A stretch of DNA of 64,000 nt from Escherichia coli (GCF_009931435.1 NZ_CP043414.1); one strand, 5' to 3'. Shown: positions 29,479 through 35,680, numbered from the stretch's first letter. Program-made: numbers and translations. Notes: a model not told the origin generated them from the sequence alone.

Positions 29479-29507
29479 GGGCTAAGCCAGATAAGTGCAC
29501 GGACGGT

Positions 29508-29545
29508 CCCCTCGCCCCTTCGGGGAGAGGGTTAGGGTGAGGGGA
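29508..29545. repeat. GC-rich imperfect palindromic intergenic element
   Basis: tcccctcgcccc ttcg gggagaggg ttagggtgagggg: nested inverted repeats in the trmJ-iscR spacer; family not confidently identified. Confidence 0.3.
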
Positions 29546-29645
29546 ACAGGCCAGCGCTAATGCGAATAATTGCCCTCAACCCGCTCATGGTCTGGAAGGA
29601 CAACAGGTACAAACGCCACGATAAAAAAATGGCACTGAAGGTTAA

Positions 29646-29700
29646 ATACCCGACTAAATCAGTCAAGTAAATAGTTGACCAATTTACTCGGGAATGTCAG
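29646..29700 (+). promoter_or_regulatory. iscR promoter with IscR type-1 autoregulatory sites
   Basis: ATACCCGACTAAATCAGTCAAGTAA and AAATAGTTGACCAATTTACTCGGGAAT fit the IscR type-1 pattern ATASYYGACTRwwwYAGTCRRSTAT. Confidence 0.6.
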
Positions 29701-29778
29701 ACTTGACCCTGCTATGCAATACCCCCACTTTTACAATAAAAAACCCCGGGCAGGGGCGAGTTTGAGGTGAAGTAAGAC

Positions 29779-30267
29779 ATGAGACTGACATCTAAAGGGC
29801 GCTATGCCGTGACCGCAATGCTTGACGTTGCGCTCAACTCTGAAGCGGGCCCGGTACCGTTGGCTGATATTTCCGAACGTCAGGGAATTTCCCTTTCTTA
29901 TCTGGAACAACTGTTTTCCCGTCTGCGTAAAAATGGTCTGGTTTCCAGCGTACGCGGGCCAGGCGGTGGTTATTTGTTAGGCAAAGATGCCAGCAGCATC
30001 GCCGTTGGCGAAGTAATTAGCGCCGTTGATGAATCTGTAGATGCTACCCGTTGTCAGGGTAAAGGCGGCTGCCAGGGGGGCGATAAATGCCTGACCCACG
30101 CGCTGTGGCGTGATTTGAGCGACCGTCTCACCGGTTTTCTCAACAACATTACTTTAGGCGAACTGGTTAATAACCAGGAAGTGCTGGATGTATCTGGTCG
30201 TCAGCATACTCACGACGCGCCACGCACCCGCACACAAGACGCGATCGACGTTAAGTTACGCGCTTAA
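29779..30267 (+). CDS. iscR: Fe-S cluster assembly transcriptional regulator IscR
   Basis: 162 aa Rrf2-family regulator with a C-terminal cysteine cluster. Confidence 0.95.
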
Positions 30268-30277
30268 TTTAACCGTC

Positions 30278-30390
30278 CTGTTTCGTGTTGCATCTGCGTT
30301 GACTGCACATACTCACTCCGGTCACTTACTTATGTAAGCTCCCGGAGATTCGTAAGTTTGTCAACTTGCTGAAACCCGAAACAGTTAGGT
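30278..30390. repeat. ERIC/IRU-like imperfect palindrome in the iscR-iscS spacer
   Basis: Reverse complement reads GAATCTCCGGGAGCTTACATAAGTAAGTGACCGGAGTGAG, close to the ERIC core GTGAATCCCCAGGAGCTTACATAAGTAAGTGACTGGGGTGAGCG; flanked by the inverted repeat ctgtttcg ... cgaaacag. Confidence 0.55.
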
Positions 30391-30507
30391 TAAAGATAAC
30401 AAGATATTAGAATCAGGCCGGGGCGTATCGCGCTCCGTAAACACGGTCGTACATCCAGCCGGTAGCCTGGTTCCTTGCATTGAGTGATGTACGGAGTTTA
30501 TAGAGCA

Positions 30508-31722
30508 ATGAAATTACCGATTTATCTCGACTACTCCGCAACCACGCCGGTGGACCCGCGTGTTGCCGAGAAAATGATGCAGTTTATGACGATGGACGGA
30601 ACCTTTGGTAACCCGGCCTCCCGTTCTCACCGTTTCGGCTGGCAGGCTGAAGAAGCGGTAGATATCGCTCGTAATCAGATTGCCGATCTGGTTGGCGCTG
30701 ATCCGCGTGAAATCGTCTTTACCTCTGGTGCTACCGAATCTGACAACCTGGCGATCAAAGGTGCTGCTAACTTTTATCAGAAAAAAGGCAAGCACATCAT
30801 CACCAGCAAAACCGAACACAAAGCGGTACTGGATACCTGCCGTCAGCTGGAGCGCGAAGGTTTTGAAGTCACTTACCTGGCACCGCAGCGTAACGGTATT
30901 ATCGACCTGAAAGAACTCGAAGCAGCGATGCGTGACGACACCATCCTTGTTTCCATCATGCACGTAAATAACGAAATCGGCGTGGTGCAGGATATCGCGG
31001 CTATCGGTGAAATGTGCCGTGCTCGTGGCATTATCTATCACGTTGATGCAACCCAGAGCGTGGGCAAACTGCCTATCGACCTGAGCCAGTTGAAAGTTGA
31101 CCTGATGTCTTTCTCCGGTCACAAAATCTACGGCCCGAAAGGTATCGGTGCGCTGTATGTGCGTCGTAAACCGCGCGTACGTATCGAAGCACAAATGCAC
31201 GGCGGCGGTCACGAGCGCGGTATGCGTTCCGGTACTCTGCCTGTTCACCAGATCGTCGGGATGGGCGAAGCCTATCGCATCGCAAAAGAAGAGATGGCGA
31301 CCGAGATGGAACGCCTGCGCGGCCTGCGTAACCGTCTGTGGAACGGCATCAAAGATATCGAAGAAGTTTACCTGAACGGTGACCTGGAACACGGTGCGCC
31401 GAACATTCTCAACGTCAGCTTTAACTACGTTGAAGGTGAGTCGCTGATTATGGCGCTGAAAGACCTTGCGGTTTCTTCCGGTTCTGCCTGTACGTCAGCA
31501 AGCCTCGAACCGTCCTACGTGCTGCGCGCGCTGGGGCTGAACGACGAGCTGGCACATAGCTCTATCCGTTTCTCTTTAGGTCGTTTTACTACTGAAGAAG
31601 AGATCGACTACACCATCGAGTTAGTTCGTAAATCCATCGGTCGTCTGCGTGACCTTTCTCCGCTGTGGGAAATGTACAAGCAGGGCGTGGATCTGAACAG
31701 CATCGAATGGGCACATCATTAA
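30508..31722 (+). CDS. iscS: Cysteine desulfurase IscS
   Basis: 404 aa from [16 protein letters not shown]; PLP-lysine region [12 protein letters not shown] and active-site SSGSACTS. Confidence 0.95.
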
Positions 31723-35302: not shown

Positions 35303-35503
35303 ATGGGACTTAAGTGGACCGATAGCCGCGAAATTGGCGAAGCACTGTACGATGCATATCCCGATCTTGATCCGAAAACGGTTCGATTCACTGATATGCA
35401 TCAGTGGATTTGCGATCTGGAAGATTTCGACGACGACCCGCAGGCGTCCAACGAGAAAATCCTCGAAGCGATTTTATTAGTCTGGCTGGACGAAGCCGAG
35501 TGA
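35303..35503 (+). CDS. iscX: Fe-S assembly protein IscX (YfhJ)
   Basis: 66 aa acidic protein immediately after fdx. Confidence 0.9.
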
Positions 35504-35680
35504 TTTCCGCGTCATGCTTCACGCCGCAGATGCGTTGGCTGCGCTCGTTCACCCCAGTCACATAGTTATCTATGTTCCTGAGGCTTCACTCACTTGCCGC
35601 CTTCCTGCAACGCGAATCATTTAGCGGAAAAATCCTGGGGCTGCCAACTGGTGGCCCTTTTACAAATAAGGATAACTAAA

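Follow-up and report, generated by a model that had tools for sequence, protein, structure and literature searches.

An ERIC/IRU copy directly after the iscR stop codon in the iscR-iscS spacer of Escherichia coli

Positions 30268-30394 of the Escherichia coli DNA analysed here (a stretch of 64,000 nucleotides from GCF_009931435.1, NZ_CP043414.1, referred to below as the window) are almost certainly a copy of ERIC/IRU, a miniature inverted-repeat element, and constitute one allele of the spacer between iscR and iscS. We have equally little doubt about its place, right after the iscR stop codon and 5' of the native iscRS element; the target of the insertion was probably a TA. The isc element is a further copy of a well-known repeat family, and as a kind ERIC is itself ordinary. 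The parts of the locus are the following.

29779-30267, plus strand: iscR, 162 aa, an Rrf2-type Fe-S regulator (ORF list; RefSeq annotation of identical loci)
30265-30267, plus strand: iscR stop codon TAA (sequence)
30268-30394, plus strand: ERIC (IRU / RU-1), 127 nt (consensus alignment, nhmmer, K-12-type genomes without the insert)
30268-30292, plus strand: ERIC left arm with the terminal inverted repeat TTTAACC, pairing with 30370-30394 (MFE structures)
30316-30347, plus strand: ERIC core hairpin, CTCCGGTCACTTAC / GTAAGCTCCCGGAG, with apical loop TTAT
30370-30394, plus strand: ERIC right arm with the 3' terminal inverted repeat GGTTAAA, relatively A/U-rich
30391-30393, plus strand: TAA repeat matching the stop-codon TAA at 30265-30267, a direct repeat flanking the ERIC
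30397-30506, plus strand: iscRS "iscR stability element" (RF01517), 110 nt, a native intergenic structure and not part of the ERIC
30508-31722, plus strand: iscS, cysteine desulfurase, 404 aa (ORF list; RefSeq annotation of identical loci)

The spacer thus laid out measures 240 nt in the window, and the left arm of the element starts at the base right after the iscR stop codon. Its borders follow from an ungapped alignment to the family consensus and from comparison with genomes that do not have the insert. Against the published 127-nt E. coli ERIC consensus (Delihas 2007, PMC2759123, Table 1a), 30268-30394 aligns without a gap at 92 of 127 identical positions (72%), rising to 36 of 40 (90%) in the core, and K-12-type genomes have a 111-nt spacer without the 129 nt at 30268-30396. 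An nhmmer profile built non-circularly from nine ERICs, with all isc copies left out, scores 91.3 bits on the element (E=1.8e-27, envelope 30268-30394) and matches exactly two places in the 64-kb window, this one and 35504-35630. Over its full length the isc ERIC also aligns with the classical E. coli copies at cusC-cusF, aceF-lpdA, pgk-fbaA, ybiT and ahpC-ahpF, and blastn against other E. coli copies gives 87-89% coverage at 70-73% identity (E 9e-9 to 7e-4). Note that, relative to the orientation in which Hulton and Wilson-Sharp give the ERIC consensus, the strand transcribed at isc is the reverse complement; the E. coli consensus of PMC2759123 Table 1a is likewise the reverse complement of the Wilson & Sharp 2006 consensus.

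The initial annotation of this DNA had already proposed an ERIC-like palindrome here, and full-length alignment, conserved core, hairpin and presence/absence polymorphism all agree with that call; the ungapped alignment over the full 127 nt (92/127) excludes a poor match to the family. The core that it quoted, GAGCTTACATAAGTAAGTGAC, is found on the minus strand at 30321-30341 with 0 mismatches, where shuffles of the window are expected to give 0 matches. Its coordinates, 30278-30390, do fall on the element, but the true borders lie about 10 nt further out on the left and 4 nt further out on the right.

The second profile match in the window, 35504-35630 (98 bits), adjoins the iscX stop codon TGA (35501-35503) and is followed by pepB. 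It is oriented like the iscR copy, differs from it by a divergent core, CACATAGTTATCTATGTTCC, and is also present in the K-12-like genome used for comparison, so that the isc operon in the window has two ERICs of the same orientation, one after iscR and one after the last gene, iscX.

With the ERIC/IRU/RU-1 family (Sharples & Lloyd 1990; Hulton et al. 1991; Wilson & Sharp 2006) the isc copy shares its length of 127 nt, the ungapped fit to the consensus with a 90% core, the terminal inverted repeats, the long hairpin, the intergenic position within an operon, the multi-copy habit and the presence/absence polymorphism. It differs in being a divergent singleton (72% identical to the consensus, 65-73% to the other copies compared) and in its termini, both of which depart mirror-symmetrically from the consensus: TATACCC...GGGTATA has become TTTAACC...GGTTAAA, a symmetric change that leaves the terminal TAs no longer intact. 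The terminal dinucleotides are accordingly TT...AA and not TA...TA, and there is no pristine empty site of the same haplotype to set beside them. The TAA at 30391-30393 may be the remnant of a TA target-site duplication. Compared with the 115-nt iscR-iscS spacer found in E. albertii and E. coli 33E, the filled site has 125 nt more (127 minus 2), which is the length expected of a 127-nt element that includes one duplicated TA.

Other families can be set aside. REP/BIME elements resemble the isc ERIC in being repeated extragenic palindromes within operons, able to shape segmental mRNA stability, but they form another family of roughly 35-nt, G+C-rich units of unrelated sequence; 30268-30394 is a 127-nt ERIC, unrelated to the REP-like units in the trmJ-iscR spacer of K-12. 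Nor does the element belong to RF01517, as 30268-30394 lies wholly outside the model match, which starts at 30397. Rfam contains no ERIC family, and over the ERIC region it yields only weak sub-threshold matches, to CssrA (a Shigella sRNA) and V_AS5 (a Vibrio antisense RNA). These lie at 30223-30322 and 30272-30394 on the minus strand and suggest that both families probably include ERIC-derived sequence. A search of the literature for ERIC at iscR, iscS or yfhP, which did not cover Wilson & Sharp 2006, found no mention of the locus.

How widespread is the filled allele? Counting the insert with a junction-spanning query, we find it in 489 of 5,426 complete E. coli genomes (~9%), in 486 of the 489 at 99% identity or more, so that strains do vary at this spacer, as had been anticipated. 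Carriers include O26:H11 and O111 strains. A query consisting of the ERIC alone detects other ERICs in every E. coli genome, at a median of seven detectable places for this divergent query, but no copy 80-99% identical to the isc ERIC exists in the 5,426 genomes; with no such paralogue, recent transposition within E. coli is ruled out.

The near-invariance of the ERIC-bearing spacer across divergent Escherichia backgrounds implies that it behaves as a separate haplotype, carried from one background to another by homologous recombination over short tracts. Over 24 kb the window is about 95% identical both to a K-12-like genome and to the ERIC-bearing strain DEC9B. Between 30234 and 30620, a tract that includes the whole spacer, window and DEC9B show 0 differences in 387 nt, and the flanking genes differ at 9 of 489 (iscR) and 24 of 1215 (iscS) positions. 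Among seven carriers the 240-nt spacer shows 0-6 differences and iscS up to 28; in some carriers iscS is near-identical to that of K-12 (4 differences), and the trmJ-iscR spacer comes in three lengths (~270, 300 and 451 nt). The right flank linked to the ERIC is present at 95% identity or more in 454 genomes, as against 489 carriers, and in ERIC-bearing genomes only. Splitting haplotypes by identity bands, we see no precisely excised derivative of the ERIC haplotype in the 5,426 genomes.

Several further observations concern the same neighbourhood. The tract 30234-30620 is in itself consistent with recent short-tract recombination that carried the ERIC spacer across divergent backgrounds. Window positions 20001-44000 reach 99% identity to only 9 of 5,426 genomes (about 18 reach 98.6%; the K-12-like comparator is 7FA), and the window appears to come from a divergent lineage of Escherichia that is filed under E. 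coli. The trmJ-iscR spacer (29479-29600) has been replaced between strains: K-12 has three tandem REP/BIME-like units (451 nt), window and DEC9B have another, G-rich palindromic repeat, CCCCTCGCCCCTTCGGGGAGAGGGTTAGGGTGAGGGG (300 nt), and other carriers have about 270 nt. In E. coli 33E (L003, 361-555) the 3' end of iscR and the 115-nt spacer match E. albertii (L013) and not E. coli, which suggests that this segment was introgressed.

ERIC is also found at the same site outside Escherichia. Spacer lengths and a profile scan were obtained for at least 80 loci from species-representative genomes with IscR, and among the matches listed only Citrobacter werkmanii NBRC 105721 has an ERIC between iscR and iscS, in a 242-nt spacer and in the same position and orientation as in the window. 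A pattern search of metagenomes combined with a protein-identity look-up revealed a third lineage with the ERIC in this position and orientation, which includes CP026193.1, named Enterobacteriaceae bacterium ENNIH1 in PMC6721500; the metagenome scan for an ERIC followed by the iscRS element returned three loci only. GCA_048351055.1, which has the same IscR as C. werkmanii, carries an internally deleted ERIC of about 81 nt at the site (L115, 1993-2073), and nine other genomes sharing that IscR have a 112-nt spacer without ERIC. The remnant derives from a C. werkmanii-type copy and shows CGCC microhomology at the junction, consistent with slippage across the palindrome. ERIC is absent from the site in E. 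albertii and in 20 Citrobacter/Salmonella-like genomes sharing IscR or IscU, and the long iscR-iscS spacers of Pectobacterium, Brenneria, Rahnella, Rouxiella, Providencia, Shimwellia and Pluralibacter contain no ERIC-like palindromic repeats, and in Pectobacterium, Rahnella, Rouxiella and Providencia no large palindrome of any kind.

The three isc copies are 76-80% identical to each other but only 65-73% identical to genomic copies at other loci, and window and C. werkmanii have the right-flank variant GATAAYAAGATATTAG in common; because of this higher mutual identity and the shared right flank we read the three copies as orthologous. Their divergence of 23-25% is somewhat below that of 4-fold sites in iscS from the same genomes (27-40%; for example 25% versus 36%), which fits an old insertion and not a recent import. 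Recent import from Citrobacter in particular can be rejected, the E. coli copy being 24-25% diverged from both foreign copies, which agrees with the distance between the species. As to the right flank itself, 30395-30410 (GATAACAAGATATTAG) has a single difference from C. werkmanii even though the ERIC copies are 25% diverged, and in E. coli this variant occurs in ERIC-bearing genomes only. A separate ERIC lies in the iscA-hscB spacer of GCA_021288085.1 (L107, 3339-3459), in the opposite orientation; different lineages have thus acquired ERICs at several places within the isc operon.

If the copies are orthologous, the differences between them can be asked what they do to the hairpin. When the window is compared with C. 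werkmanii, differences are seen at 17 of 62 paired positions; 14 of these 17 belong to seven pairs that have changed on both sides with pairing kept (7/31 pairs; P=7.5e-5 under random placement of differences). The other two comparisons among isc copies give P=1.5e-3 and 8e-5. Paired compensatory changes of this kind indicate that the hairpin has been maintained in place, and they could stem either from selection on the RNA or from arm-to-arm repair or conversion of the palindrome at the DNA level. The family as a whole behaves similarly. A consensus hairpin across 15 ERIC copies has 91.8% of cells paired, compared with 80.9% in shuffles and about 40% in slid controls, and 16 of its pairs have changed on both sides, a number that 0 of 500 shuffles reach; the changes nearly always replace one Watson-Crick pair by another, and G-U intermediates are few.

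That a palindrome is really present between iscR and iscS, and not there by chance, is borne out both by inverted repeats and by folding. An inverted-repeat search recovers the core hairpin arms (30316-30329 / 30334-30347), which form the best-conserved block of the ERIC family alignment, and outer arms of 25 nt (30268-30292 / 30370-30394) that are 80% complementary. The right arm, AAACAGUUAGGUUAAA, is poorer in A/U than the consensus, AAUUAUUUUGGGUAUA. As RNA, 30265-30396 folds at -45.8 kcal/mol, compared with -25.5 +/- 3.3 for shuffles (z -6.1, 0/200), into a predicted duplex of about 45 bp that is imperfect, with many internal loops and mismatches. The whole 240-nt spacer, whose stable folding had been proposed as a check, reaches -79.3 kcal/mol (z -3.5) in two separate domains.

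The two domains are predicted to ignore each other. A partition-function fold of 30208-30567 gives 0.02 expected base pairs between the ERIC and its flanks, and the mean unpaired probability is the same with and without the ERIC both for the iscS Shine-Dalgarno/AUG region (0.37 and 0.37) and for the P1 hairpin of the iscRS element (0.16 and 0.16). The ERIC is therefore predicted to be an insulated folding module that leaves the iscRS element and the iscS start region unaffected. Since we find no sigma-70-like promoter in 29600-30700, and the two terminator-like sites in that interval both lie outside the spacer (30268-30507), the ERIC should belong to the iscRSUA transcript, and we infer that it is co-transcribed in iscRSUA mRNA. 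No U-run follows the hairpin.

Orientation follows a pattern too. The strand transcribed at isc folds 6-21 kcal/mol more weakly than its complement in 15 of 15 ERIC copies. All five E. coli ERICs situated at most 6 nt from an upstream stop codon (iscR, iscX, ahpC, ybiT, cusC) have one and the same orientation, and the copies at pgk-fbaA and aceF-lpdA, which are 58-165 nt away from a stop codon, are both inverted relative to them. At isc, the stop codon adjoins the left arm in all three lineages, Escherichia, C. werkmanii and ENNIH1. When a terminating ribosome is modelled by forcing 30250-30280 to be unpaired, the mean unpaired probability over 30378-30396, on the right-arm side, rises from 0.24 to 0.64.

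Any role for the ERIC has to be considered next to that of its neighbour. The iscRS element, 2 nt downstream of the ERIC, is recognised by cmscan as RF01517 with 118.3 bits (gathering score 40; E=1.6e-31; model positions 1-110). It is intact downstream of the ERIC in C. werkmanii, ENNIH1 and GCA_048351055.1 and occurs also in ERIC-less genomes. According to PMC12533949 (Massé laboratory, citing Desnoyers 2009), the iscRS structure is the cause of the RyhB-dependent accumulation of an iscR fragment. ERIC and iscRS element are alike in sharing a spacer and a transcript and in being structured RNAs that bear on differential decay of the operon; they are unlike in that the iscRS element is a separate, adjacent sequence, independent of the ERIC and without predicted pairing to it. 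The initial annotation had suggested that a structure in this spacer might uncouple iscR from iscSUA. The suggestion is plausible, and a structure of this sort does exist in the spacer, but the one that is known is the neighbouring iscRS element and not the ERIC: unrecognised at the time, it already does the job that had been proposed for the ERIC.

Two observations on the neighbouring structures may be added. The first hairpin of the iscRS element (30417-30437) has three E. coli alleles with compensatory stem changes, GGAGUGCUAAAUACUCC in K-12, GGGGCGUAUCGCGCUCC in the window, CX08 and about 1,860 genomes, and GGAGUGUUUAACACUCC in isolate 362, which supports this hairpin of the Rfam element. 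In Brenneria roseae, the stretch where iscR ends and its long spacer to iscS begins (L036, 1896-2087) matches RF02783, the IscS1 thermometer, with 62 bits, just over the threshold of 58.

What might the ERIC do in this setting? The role we consider the most likely, though at less than even odds, is that of a ribosome-sensitive hairpin by which the decay of the iscR segment would be modulated. It takes its lead from the stop-adjacent "B-oriented" ERICs of Yersinia enterocolitica (De Gregorio et al. 2005), as these are summarised in the reviews PMC2229807, PMC3184786 and PMC10969869. There, ERICs adjacent to a stop codon are described as lowering the levels of the upstream transcript, and RNase E is the nuclease named. 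The isc copy resembles the Yersinia ERICs in several ways: it is situated at the 3' end of a gene with which we infer it to be co-transcribed; it abuts the stop codon; it shares the orientation of the stop-adjacent copies, if "B" can be equated with it on the basis of position; and the base of its hairpin would, according to the model, be within reach of the terminating ribosome. It is unlike them in having a less A/U-rich right arm and a stability element right downstream, an arrangement undescribed in Yersinia. Cleavage by RNase E and the effect on the transcript are put forward for the Yersinia system, and are proposed at isc by analogy.

On this analogy, the ERIC, co-transcribed in iscRSUA mRNA, would form an autonomous hairpin of about 127 nt in the weaker-folding orientation. 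Because not a single base separates the left arm from the stop codon, a ribosome terminating on iscR would melt the basal helices and free the right arm and linker (~30378-30411). RNase E might then cut the freed A/U-rich stretch, as proposed for stop-adjacent ERICs in Yersinia, and the cut would leave the iscR segment without the protective iscRS structure that follows it. In ERIC strains one would then expect iscR to turn over faster, or the iscR:iscSUA ratio to be lower, although autoregulation by IscR would buffer part of the effect. Melting by the ribosome, cleavage by RNase E and the sign of the effect would all have to carry over from the Yersinia case, and the effect of the ERIC on iscR stability could be destabilising, not protective. 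Several points count against this role. The ERIC is dispensable, because 91% of E. coli and most sampled relatives do not have it and an internally deleted copy exists; the iscRS element and the iscS start region are predicted to fold alike with and without it; its right arm is poorer in A/U than the consensus; and the compensatory changes could reflect arm-to-arm repair or conversion of DNA.

The most serious rival is a neutral passenger, co-transcribed and folded but without measurable effect on iscR/iscSUA, whose distribution is set by drift, linkage and recombination. That 91% of E. coli, E. albertii and 20 Citrobacter/Salmonella-like genomes lack it is what one would expect of such a passenger, as is the internally deleted derivative in GCA_048351055.1. 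Insulation points the same way: 0.02 pairs are expected between the domains, and neither the ribosome-binding site nor the P1 hairpin is predicted to change in accessibility. IscR autoregulation, too, would buffer small changes (PMC12533949). However, copies at the same site keep their hairpin by paired changes (P=7.5e-5), the ERIC diverges more slowly than synonymous sites, its geometry fits the class of ERIC reported to affect upstream transcripts, and no precise excision of the ERIC haplotype is seen in 5,426 genomes. We consider a passenger unlikely on balance, but a reading to be taken seriously.

A second alternative takes up the idea of the initial annotation: the ERIC would be an extra 3' stabiliser, a second barrier to 3'-to-5' exonucleases that protects the iscR fragment once RyhB has induced cleavage of iscSUA. 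REP and other intercistronic palindromes are classical stabilisers of mRNA, the isc hairpin is stable and lies right 3' of iscR, and the iscRS structure demonstrates that the position can hold a protective structure. Yet with an intact protective element already downstream the ERIC would be redundant, it is present in the weaker-folding orientation, and the base of its hairpin is predicted to be reachable by the terminating ribosome. In the reviews, moreover, stop-adjacent ERICs are described as lowering upstream transcripts. Stabilisation therefore strikes us as distinctly improbable. Less probable still is that the duplex serves as an RNase III site, the cut parting iscR from iscSUA constitutively and independently of RyhB and translation: the predicted duplex of about 45 bp would offer a substrate, and cleavage at MITE hairpins is documented for Correia elements (PMC10969869), but the duplex is imperfect, broken by many internal loops and mismatches, and for ERIC the reviews consulted name RNase E only. 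Least credible of all is a role in DNA or initiation, be it as an iscSUA promoter escaping IscR repression, a terminator or attenuator, a cruciform or a recombination hotspot, which could draw on the apparent movement of the spacer haplotype by short-tract recombination and on the deletion with CGCC microhomology in GCA_048351055.1, consistent with slippage across the palindrome, but is at odds with the lack of sigma-70-like promoters in 29600-30700, the position of both terminator-like sites outside the spacer, the missing U-run after the hairpin, and the fact that the 91% of strains with no ERIC express iscS from this operon as well.

Returning to the ribosome-sensitive hairpin, one may string the observations together into a bolder proposal: the ERIC spacer would be a functional regulatory allele and not junk, inserted before the Escherichia/Citrobacter split, kept foldable by compensatory change, now spreading among divergent Escherichia backgrounds by short-tract recombination, and changing IscR:IscSUA. 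We regard the proposal in this full form as rather unlikely, but if it were true, IscR:IscSUA and the Isc/Suf switch under iron limitation would be altered in about 9% of E. coli, O26 and O111 strains among them.

The operon in question is the textbook example of a polycistronic mRNA of which an sRNA, RyhB, causes only a part to be degraded, and the switch from Isc to Suf has been linked to iron-stress responses and aminoglycoside tolerance. To our knowledge, all work on RyhB and iscRSUA was done in K-12, which does not have this insert. About one in 11 E. coli genomes, then, has a further hairpin of 127 nt placed right between the iscR stop codon and the structure that shields iscR, and if the hairpin alters iscR decay, strains would differ in IscR dosage and in the Isc-to-Suf switch. 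Both filled and empty alleles are available on near-identical backgrounds, which makes the locus a clean natural test of ERICs as RNA regulators in E. coli. Should there be no effect, the isc element would be one more ERIC copy, together with a caution that intergenic maps of K-12 are not valid for all strains. The value of the finding lies in a filled/empty polymorphism at a model sRNA-regulated operon, together with the evidence for conservation of the hairpin in place across genera.
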